This document shows positions 21,784 through 39,373 of a DNA stretch of 64,000 nucleotides, piece by piece. How positions within the stretch are numbered: position 1 is the first letter of the stretch; each line of letters begins with the position of its first letter. Source of the DNA: Alphaproteobacteria bacterium (GTDB lineage Bacteria > Pseudomonadota > Alphaproteobacteria > UBA6615); assembly GCA_965261975.1 (NCBI GenBank), contig CBDHEC010000046.1, positions 1 through 64,000 of the forward strand. Direction: 5' to 3'. Position numbers and translations under genes: made by a program. The notes beneath the pieces are model-generated. The model worked only from the letters and a program-made list of their open reading frames with translations, searched no databases and was not told the origin of the DNA.

Positions 21784-21792
21784 TTATCCACA
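21784..21792 (+). promoter_or_regulatory. Perfect DnaA box in an AT-rich intergenic region
   Basis: TTATCCACA; GANTC sites at 21818 and 21829. Confidence 0.5.
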
Positions 21793-21949: not shown

Positions 21950-23158
21950 ATGCACAACGACGTACTCGACACGCTTACGGATTACCCGTTCGACCGCTTG
22001 CGGTCGCTGCTCGGTGACAGCACGCCGCCGGACGGCTGCGCGCCCATTCACATGCAGATCGGCGAACCCAAGCACCCGCCGCCCGGCTTCATCGAGCCGC
22101 TCCTCACCCAGGACATGTCCGAATGGGGCAAATACCCTCCGCCCAACGGCCCGGACGACCTCCGCGCCGCGATCGCGGACTGGCTGACCGACCGCTACGG
22201 ACTTGCGCCGGGCATGGTCGATCCGGCGCGCCATATCGCCATCGTGTCGGGCACCCGCGAGGCATTGTTCATGGCAGCACTTCTGGCCGTGCCGGGGAAG
22301 AAGAACGGCACACGGCCCGCAGTTCTCATGCCCAACCCCTTCTATCAGGTCTATGTCGGCGGGGCCGCACTGGCCGGCGGCGAGGCGGTCTATCTGCCGG
22401 CCGGGCCCGACACGGGTTTCCAGCCCGATTTTTCGGCCGTCGCGGACGACGACCTCGCCCGCACTGCGCTCGCCTACCTGAACACCCCGGCCAATCCCCA
22501 GGGCTCCGTGGCCAGCCTTGATCGCCTGAAAGCCGCGGTCACCCTGGCCCGGGAGCGAGATTTCGTCCTTGCGGTCGACGAATGCTATTCGGAAATCTAC
22601 ACCGGCGACAAACCGCCGGGCCTGTTCGATGCCTGTCGTGAACTGGCGGGCGATGATCCCTTCGAGAACACCCTTGTCTTCCACAGCCTCAGCAAGCGTT
22701 CGAACGTGCCCGGCCTGCGGTCCGGCTTCGTGGCCGGCGATCCGGCGCTGATCCGGCTGTTGCTGCGCCTGCGCCAGTATGGCGGCGCCCAGGTGCCGCT
22801 GCCGGTCATGAACGCGTCGGCCGCCCTGTGGCGCGACGAGACCCATGTCGAGGCCAGCCGCGACCTGTACCGCCAGAAGTTCGACCTCGCGCTCGACATG
22901 CTCGACGGCGCGTTCGGCGCCACCCGGCCCGGCGGCGGCTTCTATCTCTGGCTCGATGTCGGCGACAGCGAGACCGCGGCATACAAACTCTGGACCGAGG
23001 CCGGCCTGCGGGTCCTGCCGGGCGCCTACCTGGCCCGCGACAACGCTGACGGCTCCAACCCCGGCGCGGCCTATATCCGCCTGGCGCTGGTGCACGACCT
23101 CGAGACGACCCGGGAGGCCATGACTCGCCTCCTCGACATTCTGGGCCGGCAGGCCTGA
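21950..23158 (+). CDS. dapC: Class I/II PLP aminotransferase, DapC-like
   Basis: [44 protein letters not shown]. Confidence 0.8.
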
Positions 23159-23196
23159 GCGAAACCAAACGTAACCTCGAAAGAGAGACGACGATC

Positions 23197-25662
23197 ATGG
23201 TGGCAAAGACACAGACCGGACCCGGCCGCGGGCTTGCAGCAAAACTCGCATTCCTGCCCGAACCCGTGCGCCTGTTCGCCAGGCGGCGGATGTTCGAAAT
23301 CGGCGGCGCGCTCTTCATCGCCGGAGCGGCGGCGCTCTCCATCGCGCTCGCCAGCTACGACAGCCTCGACGTCTCGTTCAACAACGCGACCAGCCAGGCC
23401 CCGTCCAATCTGCTCGGACCGGCCGGGGCGACGATCGCCGACATCGCGCTGCAATCCTTCGGAATCATCGCCATCCTGCCTGTCCTCGCACTGCTCGCCT
23501 GGGGCACGCGGCTGATCCGCCACCGCGGCATCCCACGTTTCGGCTGGCGGGTGCTGGGCCTGCTTATCGCCATCTGCGCCTTCGCGTTTGCACTGCATCA
23601 GGTGCCGGCCTTCGCCGGCTGGCCGATCAGGGCCGGACTGGGGGGCACCTTTGGCGACCTGACATTCCCCGGGGCCACGGCGTGGCTGTCCGGGTTCGGC
23701 ATTCCCGCAATTGCCGTCGCCGCCACGGCCGGTGTCATGGCGACCGTCATGGCCTTCCTGGCTCTCGGCCTGACCCGCGACGAATGGCGGAGCATGGGCC
23801 TGGGTGCGGCGCGCGGCCTGCGGTTCGGCGCGCGAGGCGCCAGCCTGGGTGCGGGCTGGTCGGCTCGTCACGGGGCAGGGGCCGCCCGGAGCGGCGCCGA
23901 CGGTGTGCGCCAGTTCATCGCCGCGCGCACGGCCGAACGCCAGGAGCCCTCGCTCGTACCCGGCACCACGCCGACGCGCACGCCCCCGCGCTTGTCGACC
24001 CCGGAGCCCGAGGACGATAACGACGGTATCGACGAAACCGCCACGAAGGGCCCGTCGCCGCGCGTCGCGCCGCGCGCGCCGAAACCCAAGACCAGCAAAC
24101 GCGCGGAAGCCGCAAAGCAGCGCAAGCTCGACCTGCCCAACCCCAACGGCGCCTATGAATTCCCGCCGCTGGACCTGCTCGAGGAGGCCGACGAGGCCGC
24201 GCGCGCGGCCGGCCGGGCCAAGGACGATTCCCTCGAGGCCAATGCCCGGATGCTCGAATCCGTGCTGCAGGATTTCGGCGTCCACGGCGAGATCGTCCAG
24301 GTCCGCCCGGGCCCGGTCGTGACTTTGTACGAGCTCGAGCCCGCGCCGGGCACCAAGACCAGCCGCGTCATCGGCCTGGCCGGCGACATCGCGCGGTCCA
24401 TGAGCGCGGTGTCGGTCCGCATCGCCGTGGTGCCGGGCCAGAATGTCATCGGCATCGAGCTGCCCAACATTTCGCGCGAAATGGTCTACCTGCGCGAACT
24501 CCTGGCCTCGCAAAGCTTCGAGAAACACAGCGCCGGCCTGTCGCTTGCGCTGGGCAAGGACATCGGCGGCGAGCCCGTCATGGTCGATCTCGCCCGCATG
24601 CCCCATCTGCTGATCGCCGGCACCACCGGCTCGGGCAAGTCGGTCGGCGTCAACTCGATGATCGCGTCACTGCTCTACCGCCTGCGGCCCGAGGAATGCC
24701 GCTTCATCATGATCGACCCCAAGATGCTGGAGCTGTCGGTCTATGACGGCATTCCCCATCTCATGGCCCCGGTCGTTACCGACCCGAAGAAGGCAGTGGT
24801 CGCGCTGAAATGGGTCGTGCGCGAAATGGAGACCCGTTATCGCTCCATGTCCAAGCTCGGGGTGCGCAACGTCGCCGGTTACAACCAGCGCGTCGAGGAG
24901 GCGCGCAAGAAGGGCGAGATTCTCTCCCGCAAGGTCCAGACCGGTTTCGACGAGGAAACCGGCAAGCCGGTGTTCGAGGAAGAGCCCCTCGATATGTCGC
25001 CGCTGCCGTTCATCGTCGTCGTGGTCGACGAGATGGCCGACCTGATGCTGGTCGCCGGTAAGGATGTCGAGGCAGCCATCCAGCGCCTCGCCCAGATGGC
25101 GCGCGCGGCAGGCATCCATTTGATCCTGGCGACCCAGCGTCCCTCGGTCGACGTTATTACCGGCACGATCAAGGCCAACCTGCCGACCCGGATCTCGTTC
25201 CAGGTCACCACCAAAATCGACAGCCGCACCATCCTGGGGGAACAGGGCGCCGAACAGCTGCTGGGCCAGGGCGACATGCTCTACATGGCCGGCGGCGGGC
25301 GGATCACGCGCGTCCACGGGCCGTTCCTCGCCGACACGGAGGTCGAGGACCTGGTCGCCTTCCTCAAGACCCAGGGCGAGCCCGAATATATCGATGCGGT
25401 CACGGAAGACGAGGGGGCCGCGGACGGCATCCCCGGTTTCGAGCCGACCGAGGGCGAGAGCAGCGGCAACGACCTCTATGACCAGGCCGTGGCCCTCGTC
25501 GCCCGTGAACAGAAGGCCTCGACGAGCTTCATCCAGCGCCACCTGCGGATCGGCTACAACCGGGCCGCCACCCTCATCGAACAACTGGAGAATGACGGGG
25601 TGGTCAGCCAGGCGAACCATGTCGGCAAGCGCGAGGTGCTGGTCGGCGACCACAGCGGCTAG
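23197..25662 (+). CDS. ftsK: DNA translocase FtsK
   Basis: N-terminal TM segments, [27 protein letters not shown], gamma domain [13 protein letters not shown]. Confidence 0.97.
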
Positions 25663-25733
25663 GCGCCGGCAAGCTCCCATTGCCACAAAATCGTCACTCG
25701 CCCCCGCGCGCCCGGACGCCTATTCTGACGCCC

Positions 25734-26408
25734 ATGTTTAAGGTCAAATCCAGATTGCGCGCGATCCGCCTCGTGGCGGCCCTCGTGGCAACCGCAGTGG
25801 CCGCCGCGTTGCTGCCGCTCCCGGGCGGGTCCGCGGTCGCCGCCGAGGCCGTGCCGGCAGAACTGAGCGGCGCCGACCTGGCCGATCTCGCGCGCATCGA
25901 GACCTATCTCAACGGGCTCACCACCATGGAGAGCCGGTTCCTGCAATTCTCTCCCGAGGGTGTGGCAGAGGGCCGGATCATGCTCGACCGGCCGGGCCGC
26001 CTGCGCATCGAGTATTCACCCCCGGTGCCCGTGCTGATGGTCGCCAATAATTTCCTGCTCATGTATCACGACACCCAGCTCAAGCAGACGACCTTCCTGC
26101 CTTCCAGCGAGACCCCCGCGGCCCTGCTCATCGACGATGAGATCAAGCTCTCGGGCGACGTCACCGTCACCGCGTTCGAGCGTGCGCACAGGGCATTCCG
26201 GGTCACGCTGGAACAAACAGAATCCCCCGATACCGGCTCTGTCACGCTGATGTTCGAGGATGCCCCCATGCGTCTTGCGAAGTGGCGGGTCATCGACGCC
26301 CAGGGCACGGCCATCGACGTGGCGTTGGTGGAGCCGCGGTTCGGGGTGAAGTTCAAGAACGCCGGCGACCTGTTCTCAACCATCGACCCGAACGACGTAA
26401 TCGAATAG
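25734..26408 (+). CDS. lolA: Outer-membrane lipoprotein carrier LolA family
   Basis: Signal peptide, YLNGLTT..RFLQ, RPGRLRIEY; follows ftsK. Confidence 0.88.
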   Translation: MFKVKSRLRAIRLVAALVATAVAAALLPLPGGSAVAAEAVPAELSGADLADLARIETYLNGLTTMESRFLQFSPEGVAEGRIMLDRPGRLRIEYSPPVPVLMVANNFLLMYHDTQLKQTTFLPSSETPAALLIDDEIKLSGDVTVTAFERAHRAFRVTLEQTESPDTGSVTLMFEDAPMRLAKWRVIDAQGTAIDVALVEPRFGVKFKNAGDLFSTIDPNDVIE

Positions 26409-26463
26409 ATTTCCGGGCGTGATTTCCGGCGCGGCAAGCGCGCCTTCCTGCATGAGAGTTTCC

Positions 26464-27276
26464 ATGTCCCGCACCGATACCCTCCGTCCCCTGATCGGCG
26501 TCAACGCGGACTTGCGGGACAATAACGGCATCGATTTCATCGGCACCGGCCTGAAATATGTCACCGCCGTGATCGAGGGCGCGGGCGGCATACCGGTGAT
26601 GCTGCCAACCCTGGGCGATGTCGACGGGGGCGGCCAGCTCCATGTGGACGACCTCATCGACCGGCTCGACGGCCTGGTCCTGACCGGCGGGCGCAGCAAT
26701 GTGGAGCCGCACAATTACGGCGGCGAACCCTTCCGGCCCGAGACCCTGCGCGACCCGATGCGCGATTCCACGACCCTGCCGTTGGCCCGGAAATCGGTCG
26801 AGCGCGGGCTGCCCATCTTCGGCATCTGTCGCGGCATTCAGGAAATCAACGTCGCGCTGGGCGGCACCCTGCATCCCTATCTGTGGGAGCTCGATGGCGT
26901 CAACGACCACCGCATGCCACAGACGGACGTGATGGCGAACCGCTTCGCCGTCCGCCACCCGGTGCATCTGACGACCGACGGATTGTTCGCCGAGATCGCG
27001 CAAGGTGCAGGCATCGACGGCCATGAGGTGATGGTGAATTCCCTGCACGGCCAGGGCCTCAACCGGGTGGCCGACGGGTTGCGGGTCGAAGCGGTCAGCG
27101 ATGACGGGGTGGTCGAGGGGGTCTCGATGCCGGACAGCGCGAACTTCGTCGCCGCGGTGCAGTGGCACGCCGAATACAATGTCGAACGCCACCCGTTCAA
27201 CCGCGCCCTGTTCGAGGCCTTCGGCCATGCGTCGCGCCGCCGGGCAGCCGCCCGGGCCGGCGCGAACGTCGCGTAA
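26464..27276 (+). CDS. Gamma-glutamyl-GABA hydrolase family (peptidase C26)
   Basis: LTGGRSNV.P, GICRGIQEINVALGGTL, VNSLHGQG, VQWHAE. Confidence 0.9.
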   Translation: MSRTDTLRPLIGVNADLRDNNGIDFIGTGLKYVTAVIEGAGGIPVMLPTLGDVDGGGQLHVDDLIDRLDGLVLTGGRSNVEPHNYGGEPFRPETLRDPMRDSTTLPLARKSVERGLPIFGICRGIQEINVALGGTLHPYLWELDGVNDHRMPQTDVMANRFAVRHPVHLTTDGLFAEIAQGAGIDGHEVMVNSLHGQGLNRVADGLRVEAVSDDGVVEGVSMPDSANFVAAVQWHAEYNVERHPFNRALFEAFGHASRRRAAARAGANVA

Positions 27277-27390
27277 ACATTCCGGCAAATCCGGACCGGC
27301 AGTTTTTCCCGCCCAACCCCGTGACATTGGCCGGCCGAGCAGCCTAAATAGGCGCAACACACAACAACTCATTTGAAAGCGAGATCAGGG

Positions 27391-28074
27391 ATGGATTACG
27401 TCATTCCCGCGCCGGAACAGGTTTCCGTCGCCGTCGTCGGTGAAACCGCCCGCTATCCGGTGCGCCGCATCTTCTGCGTCGGCCGCAACTATGTCGCGCA
27501 TATCCGCGAGATGGGCGGCGACGAACGCGATCCGCCCTTCTATTTCTGCAAGCCAGCAGACGCCATCGTTCCAACCGGTGGCACGATCGACTACCCGCCC
27601 CAGACCAGCAATTTCCACTACGAGATGGAGCTGGTCGCGGCAATCGGCAAAGGCGGTGCGAACATCGCCGAGGAAGACGCGCTCGACCATGTCTACGGCT
27701 ACGCGACCGGCCTCGACATGACCCGCCGCGACGTCCAGATCGCCCATCGCGAGAAGGGGCGTCCCTGGGACATGGGCAAGGGCTTCGACCAGTCCGCACC
27801 GTGCGGCGACATCCACCCGGTGTCCGAGGTCGGGCATTTCCCGAAGGGCAATCTGTGGCTCAAGGTCAACGGCGAGACCAAACAGGACTCGGATCTCGAA
27901 CTGATGATCTGGAACCTCCAGGAAACCATCGCCAACCTGTCCGGCCTTGTGACCCTGGCACCGGGCGATCTGATCTACACCGGCACCCCCGATGGCGTCG
28001 GGCCGGTCGTGGCGGGCGACAAGATGCACGGCCATATCGACGGGCTGAGCGACATCGAGATCACCGTTCGCTAG
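27391..28074 (+). CDS. Fumarylacetoacetate hydrolase family protein (fumarylpyruvate hydrolase-like)
   Basis: CVGRNY.AH..EMG, HYEMELV, LDMTRRD, PGDLIYTGTP.GVG. Confidence 0.92.
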   Translation: MDYVIPAPEQVSVAVVGETARYPVRRIFCVGRNYVAHIREMGGDERDPPFYFCKPADAIVPTGGTIDYPPQTSNFHYEMELVAAIGKGGANIAEEDALDHVYGYATGLDMTRRDVQIAHREKGRPWDMGKGFDQSAPCGDIHPVSEVGHFPKGNLWLKVNGETKQDSDLELMIWNLQETIANLSGLVTLAPGDLIYTGTPDGVGPVVAGDKMHGHIDGLSDIEITVR

Positions 28075-28093
28075 CCGCCCGAGGAGCCGCCCG

Positions 28094-28882
28094 ATGCGGA
28101 TCGCGACCTGGAACATCAACTCGGTCCGCATGCGGGCCCACCATCTCGAGCGCCTCGATGAGCTCGCCGCACCCGACGTGGTCTGCCTGCAGGAAACCAA
28201 GGTGGTCGACGAGCTGTTCCCCCACGACGCGGTGGCGGATCTGTATCCCCACCGCCATGTGCGGGGCATGAAGGCCTATAACGGCGTCGCGATCCTCTCG
28301 AAACTGCCGTTCACGACAACGGGCGGACGCGACTGGTGCGGGCGCGAGGACGCCCGCCACATCTCGGCGAAGTTCAAGGGCGGGGTCGAGATCCATAATT
28401 TCTACGTGCCCGCCGGCGGCGACGTGCCCGACCCCAAGAAGAACGACAAGTTCGCCCACAAGCTCCAGTTCCTCGACGAGATGACCAGCTGGCTCGGCGA
28501 CATCGCCGGCCCGCGGGCCAAACGCGTGCTGGTCGGCGACCTCAACATCGCGCCGCTGGAATCCGACGTCTGGTCGCACAAACAACTCCTCGACGTGGTC
28601 AGTCACACACCGGTGGAGGTCGAGGCACTGGGCCGGGTGCAGGCCGCCCATAGCTGGGTCGATGCGGTGCGTCATTTCGCCGGCGACGAGGAGAAACTGT
28701 CGAGCTGGTGGAGCTACCGGGCGCGGGACTGGCGCGCCTCGGATCGCGGCCGACGCCTCGACCATGTGTGGGTGACACCGGCCCTCAAATCGAAGCTTCG
28801 CTCTTATGAGATTCTACGCGACGCACGCGATTGGACGAAAAGCTCCGACCACGTCCCGATCATCGTCGAGATCGACGCCTAA
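28094..28882 (+). CDS. xth: Exodeoxyribonuclease III
   Basis: MRIATWNINSVR, CLQETK, YNGVAILS, GDLNIAP, RRLDHVW, SDHVP. Confidence 0.95.
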   Translation: MRIATWNINSVRMRAHHLERLDELAAPDVVCLQETKVVDELFPHDAVADLYPHRHVRGMKAYNGVAILSKLPFTTTGGRDWCGREDARHISAKFKGGVEIHNFYVPAGGDVPDPKKNDKFAHKLQFLDEMTSWLGDIAGPRAKRVLVGDLNIAPLESDVWSHKQLLDVVSHTPVEVEALGRVQAAHSWVDAVRHFAGDEEKLSSWWSYRARDWRASDRGRRLDHVWVTPALKSKLRSYEILRDARDWTKSSDHVPIIVEIDA

Positions 28883-29368
28883 CCCATCGCCCGATACATG
28901 AAGTAGCGCTCCGCCGGCACACCGTCGGGCAGGGGCAGGGCGTCCCAGCCCGCATCGGGAAACGGGTTGTTCGCCACCAGCACCGCACCGGGCGCCAAAA
29001 GTGGGCGCAGTAGGGGGATCAATGCGGCGGTCAGGGGGGGCGTCTTCCGCCGTCCCGGTCCCGAGATCGGAATGCACGAGCGCCACCGCGCCCGCGAAGC
29101 GGGCCTGCTGTTCGGCCAGCTGATCGAGTACCTCGCCGAGAAAAAGATGATCGGCATCAGGCGTGCTCTTGGGGTTGGCATTCACGACCCGGTCAAACAC
29201 GAAAACCTCGCGGTCCGGCATGATCTCGCGCAGATGATCGAAGGTGCGGCCGTTGCCGAGCCCGAGATCGAACACCGACCCCGGGACATCCGCGACCATG
29301 GCGGCAGCCACGTTCAGGCAGTCGCGCTGCGCCTGCATGCGCCGGATAAAACTGTCGAGACGGCTCAC
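28879..29368 (-). pseudogene. SAM-methyltransferase-like protein (Methyltransf_17-like), frameshifted at a G7 run
   Basis: N-half MSRLDSFIRRMQAQRDCL..DLGLGNGRTFDHLRE..VHSDLGTG; C-half LTAALIPLL..PLLAPGAV..LPLPDGV...YFMYR lies in another frame; removing one G at 29034-29040 joins them. Confidence 0.7.
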
Positions 29369-29817
29369 GAGCTTTTCGCCAGTGCCTCGCGCAACTGCTG
29401 GGTCGTTTGTTCCAGACGCGATGCCAGTTCGCGCATGATTTCGACCGACATCTCCGGGAACTCCGCCACCAGGCGGAAGAACAAATCCTTGGTAATTCGC
29501 AACGTCACCGTCGTGTCGCTGGCGCGCACGGTGGCCGTGCGTGGCACATCGCAGAGGATTGCAATCTCGCCGACAAAATCATTCCGCCCCAGCGCGGCCA
29601 CTTCAAGCTCACCATCCGGCGTGTCCACGATCACCTTGGCGGCGCCATCGACGATGATATAGGCCGCGTCGCCGACATCACCCTGGCTGAACAGGGTCTG
29701 GTCCGCCTCATAGGTGATTCGCTCGGCAGTAAACGCCAGCAGTTTCAGCTTCGATGGCTCAAGTTTCGCGAACAGCGGAATGTTCCGCAGCAGTTCGACT
29801 TCTTCGTTCAGGCTCAC
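29365..29817 (-). CDS. Stand-alone cyclic-nucleotide-binding domain protein
   Basis: LF.QGD.GDAAYIIVDG, FVGEIAILCDVPRTATVRA phosphate-binding cassette; no HTH. Confidence 0.92.
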   Translation of the reverse strand: MSLNEEVELLRNIPLFAKLEPSKLKLLAFTAERITYEADQTLFSQGDVGDAAYIIVDGAAKVIVDTPDGELEVAALGRNDFVGEIAILCDVPRTATVRASDTTVTLRITKDLFFRLVAEFPEMSVEIMRELASRLEQTTQQLREALAKSS

Positions 29818-29874
29818 GTTTCGTTACTCCCCATCGGGACCGGCTCCGATCCCTTGCGTCCTGGTCTCATGCGC

Positions 29875-30077
29875 CTAGCTCGACTGAAGCAGCTCATGCA
29901 GGGCCGTCCCATCCTTGTTCAACTCTTCATATGTGCCTTGTTCGGCCATCTGACCATCCCTCAACACCGCGACGCGCTGGAACTGCGATGCCATCGAGGC
30001 CCGGTTGACCACCCAGATCACACCCTGGCCGTCGCGCGCCTCGAGGACCTTCGCCGCGATCCGGTCCTGGGCGGCCC
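29875..30077 (-). pseudogene. C-terminal remnant of an ABC exporter ATPase
   Basis: AAQDRIAAKVLEAR..GVIWVVNRASMASQFQRVAVLRDGQMAEQGTYEEL: post-D-loop ABC tail with no start and no Walker motifs. Confidence 0.65.
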
Positions 30078-30424
30078 TTGCGGAGCTTGAAGGTGAAGAC
30101 CTTGTCGTCGACAGCCTCGAAGGATTCGAGGATGTCGGGCACCAGGTTATAGTCGTCGTCATAGCCGACCAGCCGGGCGTAGCCGTAGACGGTCATCAGC
30201 CGGGTGTCGCGCGCGCGGGCCATGGCGATGCGCAGGTCGCCGCCATACTGGCCGCCCTCGATGTCGATGACCCGCGGCGGCTGGGGCAGGCGATCCGTGA
30301 CCGGCGGCAGTTTCCCGTCCGCAACTTCCTTGGCCAACATCGGCGACTGGCCGAAGTCGGCGATGGCAGGCGGCGACAGCAGAGCCAGTGCGGCGATAAC
30401 GGGGACAATGATCTTCAGGCGCAT
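30073..30424 (-). pseudogene. N-terminal remnant of a family-5 ABC substrate-binding protein
   Basis: Signal peptide, SPMLA..V..GKLPPV.DRLP..P, G.YGG.LR, PDILES, FTFKLRKG, then breaks where H.WSDG is expected. Confidence 0.75.
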
Positions 30425-32313
30425 CACGCGACCTCCGGCAGGGCGCCGCGCGCGGGATCGGCGCGGACGTAATGTCCGTCCTCCAGCTCGACGAGCCGGG
30501 GCTGGGACTGGTTGTCGATGGTGAAGGGGGCGGGCCACAGCGCGGGTTCCGAGGCGCGATCCTCCATCAGGTCGGTGAGGTTGAGTCGGTTCTCGAGGCT
30601 CGGCTCGGGCACAGCGGAAAGCAATGCCTGGGTGTAGGGATGTGCCGGGTTGCGGAACAGGGTCTTGGCCGGGGCCATCTCCACGAGGCGGCCGGCGCAC
30701 ATCACCGCGATCCGGTCGGCGATGTAATCGACGACGGCGAGGTTATGGCTGATGAACAGGTAGGTCAGCCCGAGGGCCGACTGGAGATCCTTCAGCAGGT
30801 TCAGGATCTGGGCCTGGATCGACACATCCAGCGCGCTGACCGGCTCGTCGCAGATCAGCAGGTCGGGCTTGAGCGCCAGCGCGCGCGCGATGCCGATGCG
30901 CTGGCGCTGGCCGCCGGAGAAGCTGTGGGGATAGCGGTTGAGAAACCTCGGATCGAGGCCGACCAGGCGCATCAGTTCGCGCACCGTGTCCGCCCGGGTC
31001 TCGGCGGTGCCGATCTCGTGGATCACCAAGGGCTCGGCGATGATTTCGAACACCGTCATGCGGGGGTTCAGGGAACCGAAGGGATCCTGGAAGATGAACT
31101 GAACCCGGCGGCGGAAATCCTTGAGCTCGCGGCCCTTGAGCGCCAGTACGTCGACCGGCTGTCCGCCGTCATGGAAGGTGATGGTGCCGGTGTCGGTGGC
31201 GAGCGCGCGCATGATCATCTTCGAGGTGGTGGTCTTGCCGCAACCGGACTCGCCCACCAGGCCGAGGCATTCGCCGCGCGCGATCTCGAAGCTGACATCG
31301 TCCACCGCGAGGACCGAGCGCGCCTCCTGGGAGCCGAAATAGCTGCCCTTGCGGATCAGGAAGCTCTTGGAAATACCCTCGACGGTTAGCAGCGGCGTGC
31401 CGGCCGCCGCCTGGGGCGCGCGGTCGGCATTGGGTTTGATCAGCTCGCCGGATTCCGCCTTGATCTCGCGCAGCGGCACGAGGCGTTCGCCCTCGGCCAG
31501 GCCGAAGCGCGGCACGGCGTTGAGCAGCGCCTTGAGATAGGGGTGGCCGGGATCGCGGTAGATATCCTCGACCGTGCCGCTCTCCATCACCTTGCCGCGG
31601 AACATCACCACGACTTCCTCGGCAACGTTCGCAACCACGCCGAGATCATGGGTGATCATCAGCACCGCCATGTCGAGCTCCGACTGCAGGTCCTTGATCA
31701 GCTTGAGGATCTGCGCCTGGATCGTGACGTCCAGCGCGGTCGTCGGCTCGTCGGCGATGAGCAGTGCGGGCCGGCAGACCAGCGCCATCGCAATCATGGC
31801 GCGCTGGCGCAGCCCGCCGGACAGCTCGAACGGATAGGTCTTCAAGGCGCGGGTCGGGTCGGGGAAGCCAACAAGACGCAGCATATCGGCGGCCAGCTCG
31901 TTGCCGGTCTGCTTATCGACGTCGCGGTGCAGGTGCAGCGCCTCGGTGATCTGGTCGCCGACCGTGTGCAGGGGCGAGAGCGAGGTCATCGGTTCCTGGA
32001 AGATCATCGAAATCCGACCGCCGCGGATCGCGCGCATCGGCTTGCCGTCGCGCTCCAGCTTCGCCAGGTCGACCGGCGTGCCGTCGCCGCGCGGATCGGT
32101 GAACAATATTTCCCCGCCCGCGATGCTCCCGATGTTGGGCAGGATTCCCATGATGGCCTGGCTGCAGACCGACTTGCCGGAACCGGATTCGCCGACCAGT
32201 GCCGTGGTGCCGCCCTGGCGGACCCTGAAGGACACGCCGTCCACGGCGCGCAGCTGGTCGCCATGAACGGTGAAGTCGACCTTGAGGTCGCGAACATTGA
32301 GGAGGTCGGTCAT
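30424..32313 (-). CDS. Peptide/nickel ABC transporter ATP-binding protein with fused DppD-DppF domains
   Basis: Two cassettes: [21 protein letters not shown] and [21 protein letters not shown]; HPY motifs. Confidence 0.93.
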
Positions 32314-32846
32314 CGTCGCCAATCCGCCGGGTTGCCCCAGCCGGTGAGGGCCGCGGGTGTGGGCTCATGGTCCGGTGCAATCGCGCCCAGGCCGAGGGCC
32401 GCGAAGTTGCGCGCGCTGGCATCGGTGAGCTCGATGTCTTGATCGCGCACGGCTTCGAAGGCGGCGCGGCACACGGTGTCGAAATCCTCCAGCGCGGAGT
32501 TGAGCGCGATGGTGCGTTGGCGCCCCTGGAGCTTGAGCTGCATCCAGCCATTCTCGCGATCGCGACGGGTCGAGAAATACGAAAGCTTCGCGCCGGTGAG
32601 ATCTTGCCAGGGGATGGTCGTGGCCGGGGTCGAGATTGCGTCTGCGTCGACGCGGACCGTGATCGCCCGGTTGCGCCATGTGCGGAGCCCGAAGATCGCG
32701 AACAGCGCGGCCGGAACGGCGAAGACCAGGGTGACGACAACACCGAAATCGACCGTGGCCAATGGCACGAGGCAGCAGATCAGCCCGATGGCGGCACGCA
32801 GCAAATCCGCGTTCAGGGCGCGGGGCGAGTAGCGGTGGGTGGTCAT
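32310..32846 (-). CDS. Hypothetical membrane protein (2 TM segments plus soluble domain)
   Basis: ATGA overlaps with both neighbours; YFSTRRDRENGWMQLKL segment. Confidence 0.75.
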   Translation of the reverse strand: MTTHRYSPRALNADLLRAAIGLICCLVPLATVDFGVVVTLVFAVPAALFAIFGLRTWRNRAITVRVDADAISTPATTIPWQDLTGAKLSYFSTRRDRENGWMQLKLQGRQRTIALNSALEDFDTVCRAAFEAVRDQDIELTDASARNFAALGLGAIAPDHEPTPAALTGWGNPADWRR

Positions 32847-33637
32847 GAGATCGAGAATACCTCGCTGGCGGATTGCCAGACTACCGCAGGGTGGGCCCTT
32901 GTGCGGTTCACAAATTCGGTGACGAAATCGAACATCGGGTCGTCCATGTCGGCGTGATGAGTCATCAAGCCGGTCGCCTCCAGCGCATCTTCGCCGGTCC
33001 GTCGTGCGGTCAGGTGGTCGAGAATGTCGCCGATGATATTATCCGCCCCCAAAAATCCGCGCGCCACGCCCGTGCGCTTGCCGCGCCAGTCGATCACATC
33101 CGCATGGACGTTGTTTAGACGCATGCCGCCGGTAAAGGTTACACGCGAGCGTGCCCCGAATGTGCTCAGCCCCTGAATGCCGAGTTCCGGCAAGAAGGGA
33201 ACAAGGTGGGGGGCGATTCTATTCCATGGCGGGACGAGAACGGGCAGGCGGCGGGTGAATTTCTCCATCGCCTGTCCGCCCATCGCCAGGTCCGCGACCA
33301 CATATTCGGCCGGCCGGCTGTCGTCGAGCTCGATCTTGCGGCCCTCGCCCGCGTTGAAGTCCTTGTGGGAGTAGCCGTGCTGCAGGACGGATACGGCCGC
33401 CTCGTCGGCCAGCCGGTCGCGCAGGGCATTGGTGGCGGTGGCGGGAATGACCGCCAGCGCGAGGGGCACGTCGGTCGCGGCACGCAGCGCCAGCAGCCGG
33501 TCGAGCGCCGGGCTTTGGTCCGCCGCGTCGTCGTCGCGCCACCAGAGCGTCGCGGTCAGGCCGGCGTCGGCCCAGGCGTCGAGTTCGCCCATCAGGGCGC
33601 CCCACGCCGAGTCCGGAACGTCAGGTCTGGTAGGCAT
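32843..33637 (-). CDS. Polysaccharide deacetylase (CE4/NodB-like) protein
   Basis: ELDAW..WWRDDDA, PLALAVIP, VLQHGYSH, VLVPPWNRI, GLMTHH; start at 33637 or 33649. Confidence 0.82.
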   Translation of the reverse strand: MPTRPDVPDSAWGALMGELDAWADAGLTATLWWRDDDAADQSPALDRLLALRAATDVPLALAVIPATATNALRDRLADEAAVSVLQHGYSHKDFNAGEGRKIELDDSRPAEYVVADLAMGGQAMEKFTRRLPVLVPPWNRIAPHLVPFLPELGIQGLSTFGARSRVTFTGGMRLNNVHADVIDWRGKRTGVARGFLGADNIIGDILDHLTARRTGEDALEATGLMTHHADMDDPMFDFVTEFVNRTRAHPAVVWQSASEVFSIS

Positions 33638-33775
33638 CGCCAAGGCCATGGATTTCAAACACTCCCTGCACGTCCGGACCCCCCAATCCGGACTGTCTCC
33701 CAAGGGCCAGACTAGACGGTTCGGGAGCGCGGAGTAACCCGGATTTCGGGGATTTTCTGCGTCAATTCCGGCCGA

Positions 33776-34261
33776 TCAGGCCATCCGGTGACGATTCAGT
33801 GCCGATTTCATGATTTCCGCACTGTTCTGCGCGCCGCCAAGGTCGAGACCGGAGGCCGGGGCGCGGGTCTCGCCAACGGCGCGGTCGGCCGCTGCCGCGA
33901 TGGCTTTCGGGTTTACGGCGTCGGGCTCGATGATTTCGAGCGCCCCCCGGTCGGCCAGCAGGCGGCAGCGCAGGGTCTGCTCACTTTCCAGCCCGCCGGC
34001 ATAGGGGATGCACACGGCCGGGGTGCGGGCGGCCAGAACTTCCATCACCGTGTTGTAGCCGCCCGGTGCCAGCAGGAACAACCCGCCGAAGATCAGCACG
34101 ATGGCGATCTGCACGAGCGAGATAATCTGTTCGGAACGATCCTGCTGGCGCGCCACATCCTCGCGCACCCGCGGCGGCAACACCGGCGCGGTACCCCCAC
34201 GCAATGCGGTGAGCATGCGGGAGATCGGGTTGCGGGATGCCTCTTCGGTCGGTGTCGTCAT
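33776..34261 (-). pseudogene. In-frame chimera: membrane-protein (cyclase-like) N-terminus fused to a glycosyltransferase C-terminus
   Basis: LPPRVREDVARQQDRSEQIISLVQIAIVLIFGGLFLLAP joined directly to GGYNTVMEVL..PAV..PY..G.E.EQTLR..LA..G (GT28/MurG-like C-domain). Confidence 0.6.
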
Positions 34262-34346
34262 GACGGGTATATGGGGCGGGCGTCGGTGGTTTCCCATAAA
34301 CGTCCCGTGATCGGCGAGCTGGCCCGGGATACGGCCCACACCCGCG

Positions 34347-35243
34347 CTAGAATTTCAGCGTCAGGCCTTCACGTGCGACCACGGTATTCTCGAACCGGTC
34401 TTTCGCCTCTTTCTCGATCTGCGCCATCGCGGCGTCGTCATGGGACGGGTCATGATGGAAGGGCACATAGGTGCCCACCTTTGCGATCTCGGCCAGGGCC
34501 GCGCCCTCCTGCCAGGTCGAGTGGCCCCAGCCCTCATGGGCCGGGTATTCGTCCTCGGTGTAGGTGGTGTCGTAGATGAACAGGTCGGCCCCGTCGATCA
34601 ACGTCAGGATCGCCTCGTCATGGGTGCCGGCCACATGCTCGGTGTCGGTCACGTAGCAGACGGCCTTGCCGTCGCGCTCGATCCGGTAACCGGTGGCGCC
34701 GCCCGGATGGTTCAGGAGCGCGGTCGTCACGCTGGCGCCGCAGGACAATTCGAAACTCTCGCCCGCCTTGAAGTCCTCGACGGATTTGGCCGCCACCAGA
34801 ACATCCATGGGGATGGGAAACAGCGGGTCAGCCATCATCATGTGCAGCACCTCGGAGAGATTGCGGTCGTCGGGCAGGTGCCCCGCCCACAGGCGCAGAT
34901 TCGAGTCCGGGCAGTAGGCCGGCGCGAAGAAGGGCAGGCCGACCAGATGATCGAGATGGGTGTGGCTCAACAGGATGTCGGCATCGACCCCGGTGTCCGA
35001 CGCGACCAGGGCGTTGCCCAGCGGCCGGATGCCCGTGCCGGCATCGAGGATGATGTGGCCGGGCTTGCCGCCGGGTCCGCTCCCGCAGGTGATTTCCACG
35101 CAGGAGGTGTTGCCGCCGAACGCCGTCGTCTCCGGGCCCGGACACGCGATCGACCCGCGCACGCCCCAGAAGGTGACCTCGACCTTGCCCCCCGCGTCAG
35201 CCACGTCAGGCACCCACAACGCCGGCCTTGCGGCGCGGCACAT
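34347..35243 (-). CDS. MBL-fold metallo-hydrolase (RNase Z/phosphodiesterase-like)
   Basis: FWGVRGSI, GGNTSCV, DAGTG, SHTHLDH, HPGG, TDTEH, GWGHST, FHHDP; true start probably near GTG 35204. Confidence 0.9.
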   Translation of the reverse strand: MCRAARPALWVPDVADAGGKVEVTFWGVRGSIACPGPETTAFGGNTSCVEITCGSGPGGKPGHIILDAGTGIRPLGNALVASDTGVDADILLSHTHLDHLVGLPFFAPAYCPDSNLRLWAGHLPDDRNLSEVLHMMMADPLFPIPMDVLVAAKSVEDFKAGESFELSCGASVTTALLNHPGGATGYRIERDGKAVCYVTDTEHVAGTHDEAILTLIDGADLFIYDTTYTEDEYPAHEGWGHSTWQEGAALAEIAKVGTYVPFHHDPSHDDAAMAQIEKEAKDRFENTVVAREGLTLKF

Positions 35244-35444
35244 ATGTCAAACTAGAATACATCGAACCGGATAGTGCCCCATTTCAGACCGGTCCGGTAA
35301 TGGCGGAGTGATATAGCGAAGAGCTATTTTCCGCCGCCAACATGCGTCTGCGAACATTGAGTATTCCGGGAACAACCCGGCGCACCACCATCGGCGCAAG
35401 ATCAGCGTGCGGGCCGACGAGACCCGCACACTGTCGTTACGCGC

Positions 35445-37127
35445 TCAGGATTCCGACGGCTGGGCCGATGATGGCTCCACATGGGTCGTCGGCTGGCCGA
35501 TCTTCTGGCGCTGGCCGTCGCGGTAAATCGCCGTCAGCAGCGAGATCCCCATCAGCACCATGACGAGGCTAAACGGCAGCGCGCCGATCACCATCGCGGT
35601 CTGGATGGCGCCCAGTCCGCCGGCAATGATCAAACCGCCGACCACCAGCGCCAGCGCGCCACCCCAGAATAGGATATGCGGGCGGGCCTTGGGGCCCTCG
35701 TCGCCGGCGGCGTTGATGGTGTTGATGATCAGGACCGCGCTGTCGGCCGACGTCACCAGATAGGTCAGCAACAGGATGACGATGATGATCGACATCAGAT
35801 AGGCCAGGGTGTCGCTCAGGATCACCGCCAGCATCGCGAACAGCTGGTCGGCCTGTCCGGCATCGGCGATGGCGCCGTTGGCGACCCCGGAAAGCTCCAG
35901 GTCGATGGCGGTGCCGCCGACCAGCGCGAACCAGATGAAGCACATCGCCGCCGGGATGATCAGCGCCCCCAGGACGTACTCACGAATGGTCCGCCCCTTG
36001 GAGATGCGGGCGAGGAATACGCCCACGAACGGGGCAAACGCGATCCACCAGGCCCAGTAGAAGATGGTCCAACCACCCTGCCAGCCCGCCAGCGCGTCGC
36101 CGGTCTCCGTGCCGTCCTCGGCCCAGACCGTCAGCAGATTGCCGGGGATCGAGGCCAGGTAGTCCCAGATCCCGACGAAGAAGGCCGTCAGACCGAAGAA
36201 GGTGGAGCCGAACAGGAGGAAGAAGATCAGAACGAAGAAACTCAGTCCCATGTTGATGTTCGACAGCCATTTGATGCCCTTGCCCACACCCGAAAGCGCG
36301 GACAGGGTCGACGCGCCCATGATCACGATCAGCGCCATGATGATTCCGGCCGTCGAGGAAGATCGGGTGCCGTCCGCCGCGATGTCATAGAGCCAGTCGC
36401 CCACGCCGATCCGCGACAGGCCCGAGATGAACTGCTCCACACCGAAACCAAGCGTCTGGGACACACCCAACACGGTCGCGACCACTGCAACCACGTCGAC
36501 CAAATGCCCGACGGGGCCGGAAAGGGATTTGCCGAACAGCGGCGTCAGCGCCGAGCGGATCGTCAACGGGAGCCCGCGCCGATAGCAGAAATAGGCGAGC
36601 GCCAAGCCGACGATGGCATAGGAGGCCCAGGCCGCGAGCCCCCAATGGGTGAAGGACCAGACATAGGCTTCACGCACGTTGCCGGCCGTGCTGCCCTCGG
36701 TCACCCCCATGATCGTGCTGGGGTTGGACGCGAAGTGATACATGGGTTCGGCCGTCGCGAAGGTCAGCATGCCGATGCCAATGCCCGCGCCGAACATCAT
36801 CGAGAACCAGGAAAAGTTCGAGAATTCCGGTCGGTCGTCCTCATGGCCCAGGCGCAGCCGGCCGGCCGTCGGCCAGAGCGCCAGCGCGAAGCAGAGGATG
36901 ACGAAGAACGCCATCGCATAGACGTACCAGTAGTTGAAAGAAGCCAGGATGATGCTGTTCAGATCGCCCAGGACGGCGGCGGCCTGGGCGGGAAAGGCAA
37001 TCGCCCACAGGATCAGGGCGCCGACCAGGATTTTGCCGGTGATGGTGACGTCCTTGGTGAAGCCCCGGTAGAATCCCGACGCCGAAATCGGAATGGGCAG
37101 ATCAGTAACTGGCTCTTTGAATGACAT
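35445..37127 (-). CDS. BCCT family (betaine/choline/carnitine) transporter
   Basis: SWFSMMFGAGIGIG, HWGLAAW, WTIFYWAWW, FLARISKGRTIRE, LVTSADS. Confidence 0.95.
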   Translation of the reverse strand: MSFKEPVTDLPIPISASGFYRGFTKDVTITGKILVGALILWAIAFPAQAAAVLGDLNSIILASFNYWYVYAMAFFVILCFALALWPTAGRLRLGHEDDRPEFSNFSWFSMMFGAGIGIGMLTFATAEPMYHFASNPSTIMGVTEGSTAGNVREAYVWSFTHWGLAAWASYAIVGLALAYFCYRRGLPLTIRSALTPLFGKSLSGPVGHLVDVVAVVATVLGVSQTLGFGVEQFISGLSRIGVGDWLYDIAADGTRSSSTAGIIMALIVIMGASTLSALSGVGKGIKWLSNINMGLSFFVLIFFLLFGSTFFGLTAFFVGIWDYLASIPGNLLTVWAEDGTETGDALAGWQGGWTIFYWAWWIAFAPFVGVFLARISKGRTIREYVLGALIIPAAMCFIWFALVGGTAIDLELSGVANGAIADAGQADQLFAMLAVILSDTLAYLMSIIIVILLLTYLVTSADSAVLIINTINAAGDEGPKARPHILFWGGALALVVGGLIIAGGLGAIQTAMVIGALPFSLVMVLMGISLLTAIYRDGQRQKIGQPTTHVEPSSAQPSES

Positions 37128-37237
37128 CGTGCTCGCTCTTTGTAATTACGTACGAGTGTATGATCATATAGATTCGCCACCAGATAACAAATATGTCCGG
37201 AATACTTTGTGATTAACTATCGGCAAAGAAAATTTTA

Positions 37238-37285
37238 TTCATTGAATACTTGTTGTTTTCGTTTTTACATATATTTCATTGAATA
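37238..37285. repeat. Direct repeat TTCATTGAATA x2 (candidate operator)
   Basis: Exact 11-mers at 37238 and 37275, each with a TTCA-T-TGAA dyad, in an AT-rich spacer. Confidence 0.5.
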
Positions 37286-37390
37286 TCTGCGATTCCTCTT
37301 TCCGCGCTTCACACGAACACTGTAAACCCGGCACCATGGGGCAAGCCGCCCGAACACGAATGACCGGCAGTATCTGAGGGCCCTTGAAGC

Positions 37391-38638
37391 ATGTCCAACC
37401 CCGCCACGCAGACCTCGCAGACGAACTGGACCGGCGTGTCCTATGGCATCGTGCTCGGCTTCGTCGCCGCCTACTTCCAGTTCAAGGTCCCGCCGGTCCT
37501 GCCGGTGATGTTCGACCTCTACGCCTACAACACCATCGTCGCGGGCGGGTTCATGTCGATCTTCGCCATCGCCGGCATGCTGATCAGCGTGCGCGTCGGC
37601 CGGGCGATCCGGCGCGACGGCGCCCAGCGCTACCTGATGGCCGCCTTCGGGCTGATGCTGGCGGGCACCGCGCTTGGCCTGGCGTTTCCGGAATCGGGCA
37701 CGGTGATGCTCACCTCCCGCCTGATCGAGGGGTTCGGGGCCGCGGTGCTCGCCGTGTGCATGCCGGCGTTTGCCAACATGAGCGCGGGGCCGGGGCACCT
37801 GCCCATCGTGATCGCCGCCCAGGCCACCTGGATTCCCGTCGGCCAGCTGGTCGCCAACATCGTCGCCCAGCCCTCGGTCGCGGTGAATTTCTGGCAGCCG
37901 GTCTGGTGGTTCGGCGCGGCGGCCACCCTCGCGGTGGCGCTGTGGACCCTGTGGATCGTCAGGCGCGGGAGCGTGCCGGGTGTGGCGCATATCCGTGCGG
38001 CAGCGGCAGGCGAAGATGGTGCAGCAGCGGCCAAGGACGCGGTGGCGCTCACAGCGAAAGAGATACGCGCGCTGTGGGTCGCCGCCGTCCTGTTCTTCCT
38101 GTGGCAGGCCCAGTTCATGGGCTATTTCACCTGGCTGCCGGTCTACCTGGTGGACGTCCGCGCCTTCAGTGCCGACGGCGCGGTGCTGATCAACCAGATC
38201 CCGGTGGTCGTGCTGCTGATCTTCTCGCTGCTCGGCGGGATGATCTTGAAGATCGGCGTCGGCGTGGTCCGGCTGCTCACCTTCGCCCTGGCGCTCCAGG
38301 CCGTGGGCTGGGCGATGATCCCGTTCGCGGGCAACGGCGTCATCGGGCTGGCCAGCCTTGTGGTCTGGGGCATCGCCGCGGGGCTGACGCCGACGTCACT
38401 ATGGGCATTGCCGTCGACCCTCGTCGGCGGCCACCGCGCGGGTACCGACGCCTTCGCGGTGGTCCTGACCGGGCGTTATCTCGGCATCCTCGCCGGGCCG
38501 CTCATCGCGGCGGGCATGTTCGAGCTGACCGGCGACTGGATCACCGTCGCCTACACCTTCGTGGTCATCGCGGGGCTGACCATCGTCGGCACGCTTTATC
38601 TGGGAACGCGCATCCGCGAGCTCAGGGCCGACGCCTAG
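37391..38638 (+). CDS. MFS transporter (CynX/NimT-like)
   Basis: About 12 hydrophobic helices; QFKVPPVLP, SRLIEGFG. Confidence 0.85.
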   Translation: MSNPATQTSQTNWTGVSYGIVLGFVAAYFQFKVPPVLPVMFDLYAYNTIVAGGFMSIFAIAGMLISVRVGRAIRRDGAQRYLMAAFGLMLAGTALGLAFPESGTVMLTSRLIEGFGAAVLAVCMPAFANMSAGPGHLPIVIAAQATWIPVGQLVANIVAQPSVAVNFWQPVWWFGAAATLAVALWTLWIVRRGSVPGVAHIRAAAAGEDGAAAAKDAVALTAKEIRALWVAAVLFFLWQAQFMGYFTWLPVYLVDVRAFSADGAVLINQIPVVVLLIFSLLGGMILKIGVGVVRLLTFALALQAVGWAMIPFAGNGVIGLASLVVWGIAAGLTPTSLWALPSTLVGGHRAGTDAFAVVLTGRYLGILAGPLIAAGMFELTGDWITVAYTFVVIAGLTIVGTLYLGTRIRELRADA

Positions 38639-38647
38639 GAAACGTTC

Positions 38648-39373
38648 TTACGGAACCAGGCGGTACCCGCCCGGCTCGGTCACGAGAATCCGCGCGTTCG
38701 ACGGGTCGGCCTCGATCTTCTGGCGCAGGCGGTAGACATGGGTCTCCAGCGTGTGGGTCGTGACCCCGGCGTTGTAGCCCCAGACCTCGCCCAGCAGGGT
38801 GTCGCGGCTGACGACCTTGTCGCCGGCGCGATACAGATATTTCAGGATCGCCGTTTCCTTCTCGGTCAGGCGCACCTTTCGTTCGTCGCCGTCGACCAGG
38901 ATCTTCTGGGCCGGCTGGAAGGTGTACGGCCCGATGGAGAAGACCGCGTCCTCGCTCTGCTCGTGCTGGCGCAGCTGCGCGCGCAGGCGGGCCAGCAAGA
39001 CATTCAACCGGAACGGCTTGGCGATATAGTCATTCGCGCCGGCGTCCAGGCCGAGGATCTGGTCGGCGTCGGTGTCGTGGCCCGTCAGCATGATGATCGG
39101 CGACTTCACGCCGTTGCGGCGCAGCAGCCGGCAGACCTCGCGGCCGTCCATGTCGGGCAGGCCGACATCGAGCAGGATCGCATCGAAATACTCGTCCTTC
39201 GTCACCTCGAGCGCGGCCTCGGCGGTCGTCGCCTCCGTGGTCACGAACTCCTCGTGCAGGCGCAGCTGCTCCGACAGGGAATCCCGCAACGCGTCGTCGT
39301 CGTCGATCAGCAGAATCTTCTTGCCGTTCGCGGACTTGGTCTCAATCACATTCGTCATCGCCAAACTCGCCAT
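38648..39373 (-). CDS. cenR: OmpR-family response regulator, CenR/OtpR-like
   Basis: ILLIDDD, LDVGLPDMDG, AGANDYIAKPF, LTEKETAIL, VWGYNAGVTTHTLETHVYRLRQKIE; orphan regulator near ribA. Confidence 0.8.
   Translation of the reverse strand: MASLAMTNVIETKSANGKKILLIDDDDALRDSLSEQLRLHEEFVTTEATTAEAALEVTKDEYFDAILLDVGLPDMDGREVCRLLRRNGVKSPIIMLTGHDTDADQILGLDAGANDYIAKPFRLNVLLARLRAQLRQHEQSEDAVFSIGPYTFQPAQKILVDGDERKVRLTEKETAILKYLYRAGDKVVSRDTLLGEVWGYNAGVTTHTLETHVYRLRQKIEADPSNARILVTEPGGYRLVP

Follow-up and report, generated by a model that had tools for sequence, protein, structure and literature searches.

Introduction

Several described systems share features with the locus considered here. Mycothiol- and bacillithiol-type pathways follow a two-step logic in which a GT4 glycosyltransferase is followed by a phosphatase and then by a deacetylase. 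GsiABCD- and YejABEF-type importers belong to the Opp/Dpp kind, a set made up of an ATPase, a family-5 solute-binding protein (SBP) and two permeases, and phosphodiesterases with the metallo-β-lactamase (MBL) fold include RNase Z/ElaC, YhfI, the PhnP family, Apyc1 and class II PDE1. The locus itself lies at 28.9–35.2 kb of the window, by which we mean the whole 64,000-nt stretch of contig C46 that was analyzed; this contig belongs to the alphaproteobacterial genome G000 (59 contigs, 3.03 Mb, 94.6% complete, 2.8% estimated contamination). The nearest system of all is an orthologous cluster found intact in related genomes such as G010, with which the window shares genes and local order (75–98% protein identity to G010), four 4-nt overlaps, and the same flanks, namely xth on one side and MBL and MFS genes on the other. 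The window differs in lacking 12.8 kb of cluster DNA, in the inversion of its middle 4 kb, and in that four of its nine units are fragments. We regard the region as very probably a rearranged, largely dead remnant of this conserved ~20-kb cluster.

Comparison with the intact cluster

The rearrangement was mapped by blastn of window positions 26000–39000 against a 28-kb region of G010, and three blocks were resolved. Window 26000–30076 is collinear with G010 region 3577–7759 (87.6–88.1% identity, in two high-scoring segment pairs flanking a ~110-bp indel), window 30073–34064 matches region 19566→15557 in inverted orientation over ~4.0 kb (89%), and window 34048–37503 is again collinear with region 24534–28000 (87%). 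No window counterpart was found by blastn for G010 region 7760–15556 (7.8 kb) or for region 19567–24533 (5.0 kb), which together make up the 12.8 kb. The 7.8-kb loss removed most of an ABC exporter, four glycosyltransferases (except for 96 codons of one) and a histidine phosphatase; the 5.0-kb loss removed most of the SBP, both permeases and the catalytic domain of a cyclase.

Both joins are marked by short homology. At junction A (30073..30076), the exporter tail meets the inverted 5′ end of the SBP gene out of frame, and the blastn overlap and a three-way sequence view place 4 bp (GGCC) common to both parents at the join. At junction B (34048..34064), the inverted 3′ end of a glycosyltransferase gene runs in frame into the 5′ end of the cyclase gene across 17 bp, of which 15 are identical (blastn overlap and sequence view). 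In terms of mechanism, a 4.0-kb piece bounded by the 3′ part of the last glycosyltransferase gene and the 5′ part of the SBP gene was inverted, with the loss of 7.8 and 5.0 kb on either side, in what may have been one event or several; the microhomology at both joins suggests illegitimate recombination or template switching. The products are an in-frame cyclase-N::glycosyltransferase-C chimeric ORF (open reading frame) and an out-of-frame SBP-N::exporter-C fusion, and the co-orientation of the surviving genes is a by-product of the inversion.

An arrangement of this kind could also be a chimeric mis-join introduced by metagenome assembly or binning, and the division of G000 into 59 contigs, its 2.8% estimated contamination, and the presence of most of the stretch in one run only are what such an artifact might leave. 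That run, X12, contains 0.94 of the sampled words of 29700–34400 and is probably the source sample of the window assembly. Its Logan contigs, the product of a second assembler, nonetheless cross both junctions with no mismatch: record 9 spans junction A (29700–30245, 0 differences), and record 16, of 15,357 nt, spans junction B (31738–34400, 0 differences). The junction homologies of 4 and 17 bp are moreover far below assembly word length, identity to G010 is uniform over the three blocks (87–89%), and comparable rearrangements exist at the same locus in other genomes. Eleven further runs hold 0.05–0.12 of the sampled words, and three were compared, for contig alignment ends only. In runs X1, X2 and X4, five contigs that are ~90–92% alike end their alignment exactly at 30076, 30073 or 34064 (the last position in an X2 contig) while the records run on, as relatives with the ancestral order would be expected to do. 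Overall, we consider a mis-join very improbable.

The nine units and what survives

The ORF list together with Pfam and NCBIfam profile searches of the window proteins shows nine minus-strand units between 28.8 and 35.3 kb, all of them present where an earlier note on this DNA had described nine co-oriented units. The first is an intact MBL-fold metallo-hydrolase (34347..35243; Lactamase_B_2, PF12706, 80 bits; HTHLDH motif). Seven nucleotides past its stop begins a chimeric ORF of 187 aa (33776–34339), whose sole Pfam match is Glyco_tran_28_C at aa 93–157 and whose aa 22–97 match, by tblastn, the N-terminus of the gene adjoining MBL in relatives. Its first part (34065..34339) is the 5′ remnant of a class III adenylate/guanylate cyclase gene, limited to the membrane-anchor region: aa 11–94 of the G010 cyclase align to 34300–34049 (75%), the ATG at 34261 is the likely start, and ~84–94 N-terminal codons of 486 remain, without the catalytic domain. 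A Pfam search of the ORF at 33776–34339 returned no match to PF00211 (Guanylate_cyc). The second part (33776..34047) is the 3′ remnant of the second GT28-C-like glycosyltransferase gene, GTb (G010 aa 291–388 align to 34072–33779, 85%); these last ~96 of 388 codons form the C-terminal half of the chimera, and the two-half GT-B architecture of a ~390-aa protein is absent. The chimeric ORF exists because junction B happens to be in frame.

Downstream lie three intact ORFs. The first encodes a putative deacetylase with a predicted CE4 (NodB-like) fold (32843..33703), the second a 178-aa membrane protein of no known family (32310..32846; no Pfam or NCBIfam match), and the third a whole, fused DppD/DppF-type double ATPase resembling GsiA and YejF (30424..32322; two ABC_tran domains and oligo_HPY). 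The 5′ remnant of the family-5 SBP gene follows (30077..30427; G010 aa 1–129 align to 30427–30059, 74%). It retains ~117–124 of 634 codons, including the signal peptide, and continues, no longer in frame, until a stop at 29927. Past junction A, the ABC exporter gene is reduced to its 3′ end and stop (29875..30072; G010 aa 829–892 align to 30069–29878, 95%), that is, to its last ~66 of 892 codons; matches to NCBIfam exporter families are C-terminal only, and the paired transmembrane and nucleotide-binding domains of an MsbA/HlyB-like half transporter are missing. The series ends with an intact, stand-alone cyclic nucleotide monophosphate (cNMP)-binding protein of 150 aa (29365..29817; PF00027) and a frameshifted Methyltransf_17 gene (28879..29368; the ORF in the 29368 frame is 28814–29368). 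The window keeps three whole core genes of the cluster's ten.

Translational coupling, which the earlier note had pointed to, is real at four of the eight gaps between units, where start and stop overlap by 4 nt (CE4/membrane, membrane/ATPase, ATPase/SBP and cNMP/Methyltransf_17). Because all four overlaps also occur in the intact G010 operons, they are inherited; the co-orientation of the units, by comparison, is secondary and a result of the inversion. No second copy of any lost gene was found when 16 reference proteins were searched by tblastn against the whole 94.6%-complete assembly, which yielded paralogues only: GT4s at ≤40% identity, permeases at ≤41%, and class III cyclases at 28–37%. 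With these genes, G000 has lost the capacity for synthesis, export and re-uptake as well as the local cyclase. The MBL protein, the CE4-like protein, the membrane protein, the orphan ATPase and the cNMP-binding protein persist as whole ORFs, and may continue to function.

With respect to timing, pairwise ratios of nonsynonymous to synonymous substitution (dN/dS) between G000 and G010 range from 0.02 to 0.30 for every piece, remnants included, with dS of 0.23–0.67. Since the ratio is low even in the remnants (exporter tail 0.13, glycosyltransferase tail 0.12, cyclase head 0.30), which have not yet drifted, the comparison indicates a recent rearrangement. The same result led us to discard dN/dS as evidence of function: its values in dead remnants are as low as those in whole genes, and the ratio is thus uninformative on selection in the whole ORFs.

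The earlier note had gone further and proposed that a cyclase, the MBL enzyme and the cNMP-binding protein act as writer, eraser and reader of a self-contained module wired to the making, tailoring, export and re-uptake of a small glycoside or oligosaccharide. Some features of the locus fit a working module in G000. The cNMP-binding domain and the MBL protein are intact, the fold of the latter falls in a phosphodiesterase branch that includes the cyclic-nucleotide enzymes Apyc1 and PDE1, and the paralogous class III cyclases, on contigs C25, C8, C57 and C51, could supply cNMP. The other parts fail. The window holds no cyclase catalytic domain and hence no writer, and no complete glycosyltransferase; 96 C-terminal glycosyltransferase codons and 66 of 892 exporter codons cannot provide synthesis and export, nor can ~124 of 634 SBP codons without either permease provide re-uptake, and the exporter, SBP and permeases are missing from the rest of the assembly as well. 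Since one flip and two deletions have left only part of the cluster, the proposed signalling module cannot work in G000, and we give this reading hardly any credence. A strict writer–eraser pair is also disfavored more generally, because MBL is kept in 12 of 12 related genomes and the neighboring cyclase is broken or lost in seven of them.

What the earlier note had said about similar clusters fared better. The intact neighbor of MBL is indeed a class III cyclase, complete in G010 at 486 aa with Guanylate_cyc at aa 292–449, so that a cyclase does occur in intact clusters, and neighborhood comparison recovers the same genes in synteny across genera and classes. The place of a reader in the cluster is borne out in part: the cNMP gene adjoins the exporter in 37 of the 45 loci that reach far enough upstream, and cyclase and MBL genes recur nearby in distant lineages, but either of the two is present in only 13 of 43 loci with reach. 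A further suggestion, that the adjacent BCCT transporter reflects an osmotic role, was rejected. The BCCT gene (window 35445–37127) lies between MBL and MFS in only two of nine covered genomes, G000 and G010, and for this reason is a lineage-specific insertion rather than a cluster member; in the seven other genomes MFS directly adjoins MBL.

Ancestral order and repeated decay

Twelve related, and hence non-independent, genomes were compared at the locus, and a tree of the MBL and CE4-like proteins was built for 11 of them: (G019,(G021,(G003,(G011,G002,(G000,G010,G008,(G001,(G009,G006))))))). G011, G002 and G019 are collinear with G010, and G019 and G021 branch outside the genus. As genomes on either side of the genus root carry the G010-type order, the tree places it as ancestral. 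Intact order and gene content are seen in G010, G011, G002 and G019; G003 keeps the order with a broken cyclase; G009 and G006 show collinear deletions only; and in G000, G008, G001 and G021 the CE4-bearing segment is inverted with flanking losses. The contig of G007 is too short to judge.

Every breakpoint differs among the four inverted genomes, and because intact or non-inverted genomes interleave with inverted ones on the tree, at least three independent inversions are called for. The locus decayed independently in at least six of the 12 genomes. MBL and the CE4-like gene are retained wherever the region is covered, including all six decayed genomes, and each of the other parts is missing from one or more of the six. 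The cyclase is broken or absent in G000, G003, G008, G009, G006, G001 and G021. Carriers of the intact cluster mostly have genomes of 3.5–4.3 Mb, as compared with 2.6–3.0 Mb for decayed ones, with the caveat that these genomes are not independent; G003 (2.2 Mb, 87% complete) is an exception to the trend.

Some of these loci have features of their own. In G003 (L042, ~16293–17188), an internal deletion of aa 186–364 has removed part of the catalytic domain of the cyclase and a stop interrupts the gene, with the rest of the cluster order kept. The inversion junction of G008 (L022:5690–5780, compared with G010 region 17776–17866 and 7788–7878) falls exactly inside the ABC signature motif, where the first nucleotide-binding domain of DppD/F (…LSGGLR) is joined in frame to the exporter domain (…QRLGIARALLKRADIMV). 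Such a join resembles the outcome of recombination between homologous ABC domains in inverted orientation, which would have yielded a hybrid domain. Finally, the window MBL is nearest to that of G006 and G009 (87–88%) and only 81–82% identical to that of G008 and G010, whereas the window CE4-like protein is nearest to G008 and G010 (88–91%) and only 73–75% identical to G006 and G009. These discordant identities suggest recombination between lineages within the locus.

The repeated inversions raise the question of adaptive rewiring, in which, after loss of the biosynthetic genes, an inversion was retained for placing the CE4-like protein, membrane protein and ATPase behind MBL and its promoter. 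As a corollary, MBL and the CE4-like enzyme would form a functional core kept by selection, which is compatible with our preferred explanation. In keeping with such a history, both genes are kept in G000, G008, G001, G021, G009 and G006; the CE4 segment has been turned to run with MBL in four decayed genomes, with different breakpoints and in at least three independent events; the chimeric ORF of the window starts directly after the MBL stop; and both rhizobial replicons examined (see below) show a GT4–CE4 pair beside a convergent, 3′-overlapping MBL with cyclase genes close by. However, G009 and G006 keep CE4 without any inversion, the low dN/dS of plainly dead remnants means that the same low values elsewhere are no sign of ongoing selection, and the comparison draws on ~12 related, non-independent genomes. 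We therefore view adaptive rewiring as possible but unlikely, and ordinary gene-cluster decay as by far the most probable account for this genome.

Several points nonetheless weigh against reading the window as a decayed remnant. The bridging contigs of X12 offer an independent check on the assembler but probably derive from the same reads as the window, and the exact 27- and 28-nt junction words are absent from JGI metagenome contigs, which provides no second-sample confirmation and makes no statement on rarity either way. The tree used for polarity and independence was built on only two locus proteins and leaves G000, G008 and G010 in an unordered group. Moreover, the Methyltransf_17 frameshift sits in a homopolymer and may be a sequencing error, and the five whole, highly conserved ORFs may still be expressed and useful.

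Surviving proteins

In terms of sequence, the CE4-like protein has few landmarks. It gave no Pfam match even at E 10 (Polysacc_deac_1 included), and sequence and profile searches of the PDB returned no CE4 enzyme, only spurious matches to TAL repeats. Its AF2 model (pLDDT 81), on the other hand, gave 24 PDB matches in Foldseek at E ≤ 1e-3, mostly CE4 deacetylases (TM 0.42–0.55), with peptidoglycan, chitin and xylan deacetylases at E ~1e-4; the top-ranked match was a haloarchaeal virus turret protein. Residues D57, D58, H109 and H113 are invariant in 22 homologue sequences, and may correspond to the CE4 motifs with their metal-binding Asp-His-His triad and catalytic Asp. Databases label relatives of the protein as ‘polysaccharide deacetylase family protein’. 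The model is best described as a NodB-type barrel and the protein as a putative deacetylase, with ATG at 33649 as its likely true start. The adjoining 178-aa membrane protein produced only noise in Pfam at E 10, and 61 of 80 loci have its gene next to that of the CE4-like protein.

Homologues of the MBL protein are ~277 aa long, and the true start of the window gene is accordingly probably internal. Against NF041851, a cNMP phosphodiesterase model, the protein scores 40.6 bits, below the cutoff of 400. Foldseek with its AF2 model (pLDDT 85) matched RNase Z/ElaC, YhfI, an AMP/GMP-bound Brucella protein, the PhnP family, Apyc1 and yeast PDE1, with TM 0.57–0.70. The window protein thus shares the fold and the HxHxDH motif of the MBL-fold phosphodiesterases introduced above, and differs in being only 14–20% identical to them and in reaching no curated family cutoff. 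Its predicted fold places it in the phosphodiesterase branch and does not narrow the substrate further: Apyc1 and PDE1 resemble the model no more closely than RNase Z or YhfI do, and a cyclic nucleotide is a possible substrate that the model does not indicate over others. JGI labels relatives of the protein ‘phosphoribosyl 1,2-cyclic phosphodiesterase’.

The cNMP-binding protein clearly belongs to its domain family (74.4 bits to PF00027, gathering cutoff 27.5) and is 97% identical to its G010 ortholog (dN/dS 0.036). A GE...RTA phosphate-binding cassette can be read in its translation (FVGEIAIL..PRTATV). The ATPase (632 aa) is likewise 97.6% identical to that of G010 (dN/dS 0.045). As in GsiABCD- and YejABEF-type importers, it matches the NCBIfam GsiA and YejF models over its full length, and in relatives a family-5 SBP and two permeases follow it; the scores, in contrast, are below both curated cutoffs (623 bits against 1077 for GsiA, 582 against 834 for YejF), and the window ATPase stands without its binding protein and permeases, the only whole member of an Opp/Dpp set. 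By tblastn, neither the window nor the rest of the G000 assembly contains its cognate permeases.

The Methyltransf_17 gene is interrupted. Its N-terminal 109 codons lie in the 29368 frame and the C-terminal part in the frame that ends at 28879, and, when the DNA is aligned with that of G010 and G008, the window carries one additional C in its C7 run near 29037, a +1 frameshift. The ORF covers PF12692 positions 1–108 of 160, short of a full-length domain.

The intact cluster and its distribution

The intact form was found by tblastn of the window proteins on the corresponding regions of relatives, and the G010 genes were typed by Pfam. The same order is seen in G010 (G010:C5:1134500–1153800), G011 and G002 and, from another genus, G019. 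Following the rightward flanking gene xth, three genes are read leftward: Methyltransf_17 (162 aa in G010, as are all lengths given here; full domain, profile positions 1–159), the cNMP-binding gene (150 aa) and the ABC exporter (an 892-aa ORF with ABC_membrane and ABC_tran). A rightward series then comprises a first GT28C-like gene (422 aa, Glyco_tran_28_C-like), two GT4 genes (417 and 385 aa), a histidine phosphatase (198 aa, His_Phos_1), the second GT28C-like gene GTb (388 aa, Glyco_tran_28_C-like), the CE4-like gene (286 aa), the membrane protein (178 aa), the DppD/F ATPase (629 aa), the SBP (634 aa, SBP_bac_5) and permeases 1 and 2 (332 and 408 aa, both BPD_transp_1). The class III cyclase, again leftward, and the leftward MBL that adjoins it end the cluster. 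The block from glycosyltransferase to binding protein is thus on the strand opposite to MBL, with several kb of genes additional to those of the window, and the cluster is split over three or four transcription units of differing orientation rather than forming one operon.

A few details of the intact cluster and its flank were also observed. In the G010 exporter (L040:3557–6235, minus strand), Pfam and NCBIfam models match aa 36–459 and 740–891, and ~280 residues inside the nucleotide-binding domain are unmatched. On the xth side, ~110 bp between an FAH-family gene and xth in G010 (region 5649–5761) are absent from the window (28074–28077), and G008 has ~1.1 kb extra at the same place (L022:7851–9056), including a duplicate of the initial 35 codons of xth.

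To gauge distribution, reference genomes were scanned with an alignment pattern for the CE4-like protein, which gave at least 582 stretches, of which 555 were confirmed and the best 80 loci kept. Genes were called in these loci by tblastn with 16 G010 proteins at ≥28% identity and ≥50% coverage (≥40% identity for ABC parts). Among these best 80 loci, GTb was found in 68, the membrane protein in 61, the ATPase in 58, GT4b and the histidine phosphatase in 56 each, GTa in 55, GT4a in 54, and permeases 1 and 2 in 54 and 53, respectively. The cNMP gene followed with 49, the exporter with 40, Methyltransf_17 with 37, the SBP with 35, MBL with 15 and the cyclase with nine. All ten core genes are present in 28 of the 38 loci of at least 20 kb. 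When only loci with ≥4 kb upstream are considered (n = 45), the cNMP gene is found in 37 and the exporter and Methyltransf_17 in 33 each; among those with ≥2.5 kb past the second permease (n = 43), five have the cyclase, 10 have MBL, and 13 have either. These gene calls point to the cNMP-binding gene as a frequent neighbor of the cluster and to cyclase or MBL as occasional ones.

Sources among the matches listed include marine metagenome-assembled genomes labelled Rhodospirillaceae, Reyranella, Azospirillum, Thalassospira, Inquilinus, Enhydrobacter, Hyphomicrobiales and several Gammaproteobacteria. The intact form is widespread among Alphaproteobacteria and extends to some Gammaproteobacteria. 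In the ten closest loci (CE4 ≥59% identical), some of which may be the same genomes as those compared above, most core genes are missing from six although their flanks are long enough, three carry these genes, and the remaining locus does not extend far enough.

The CE4-like gene also occurs on plasmids and chromids, in 258 matching records that are mostly from Rhizobium and Sinorhizobium. Two of these were examined. The Rhizobium sp. Pop5 plasmid NZ_CP099400.1 has the order cyclase–FkbM–cyclase <-> GT4–CE4 <- MBL, and S. meliloti pSymB (CP130050.1) has GT4–CE4 <- MBL with cyclase–lyase–double ATPase–SBP a few kb further on. As in the cluster described here, a CE4-like gene (35–45% identical) adjoins MBL and GT4 genes and cyclase genes lie within a few kb. 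The rhizobial module differs in being much smaller, and the GT28C-like pair, histidine phosphatase, exporter and cNMP protein were not seen in the two stretches. In both, the CE4-like and MBL genes are convergent and their 3′ ends overlap by a few bases (L124:13055–14634; L125:8989–10576).

Implications

The intact cluster has no described function, as the earlier note had maintained for this arrangement: no curated NCBIfam equivalog was found for its genes, and full-text literature searches found no relevant paper. The closest parallel for its biosynthetic part is the mycothiol/bacillithiol type of pathway. In intact relatives, a GT4 gene stands beside a histidine phosphatase and a deacetylase-fold protein, and its better NCBIfam matches include BshA and MshA (E ~1e-23, far below the cutoffs). 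The differences are that the intact cluster lacks a cysteine ligase, that its CE4 enzyme does not have the LmbE fold, and that it encodes four transferases rather than one. The comparison serves as a lead only, and none of the GT4 or phosphatase genes survives in the window. An amino-sugar glycoside made by transferase–phosphatase–deacetylase logic is accordingly a guess, drawn from weak GT4 similarities and from known pathways.

As a tentative and rather doubtful proposal, the intact cluster would be a cNMP-controlled system. A small amino-sugar glycoside or oligosaccharide would be built by the four transferases, the phosphatase and the CE4-fold deacetylase, exported through the ABC exporter with the stand-alone cNMP-binding protein as its partner, and recovered through the GsiA-like importer, with the MBL phosphodiesterase and the CE4-fold enzyme as a minimal core that persists once all the other parts have gone. 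On the same reading, the marine genus to which the window belongs would provide a natural set of independent partial deletions with which to take the system apart.

Taken together, the comparison carries a caution, in that tidy co-orientation and translational coupling can arise from an inversion and two deletions, and annotating the window ORFs as a pathway would be wrong. It also exposes a widely conserved cluster of 18–20 kb, of undescribed function and with a cNMP-binding protein as a regular member, and a locus at which several marine relatives with small genomes have independently undergone inversion and trimming. With cultured carriers among the named matches listed (Azospirillum, Thalassospira and Inquilinus), the function of the intact cluster is directly testable.

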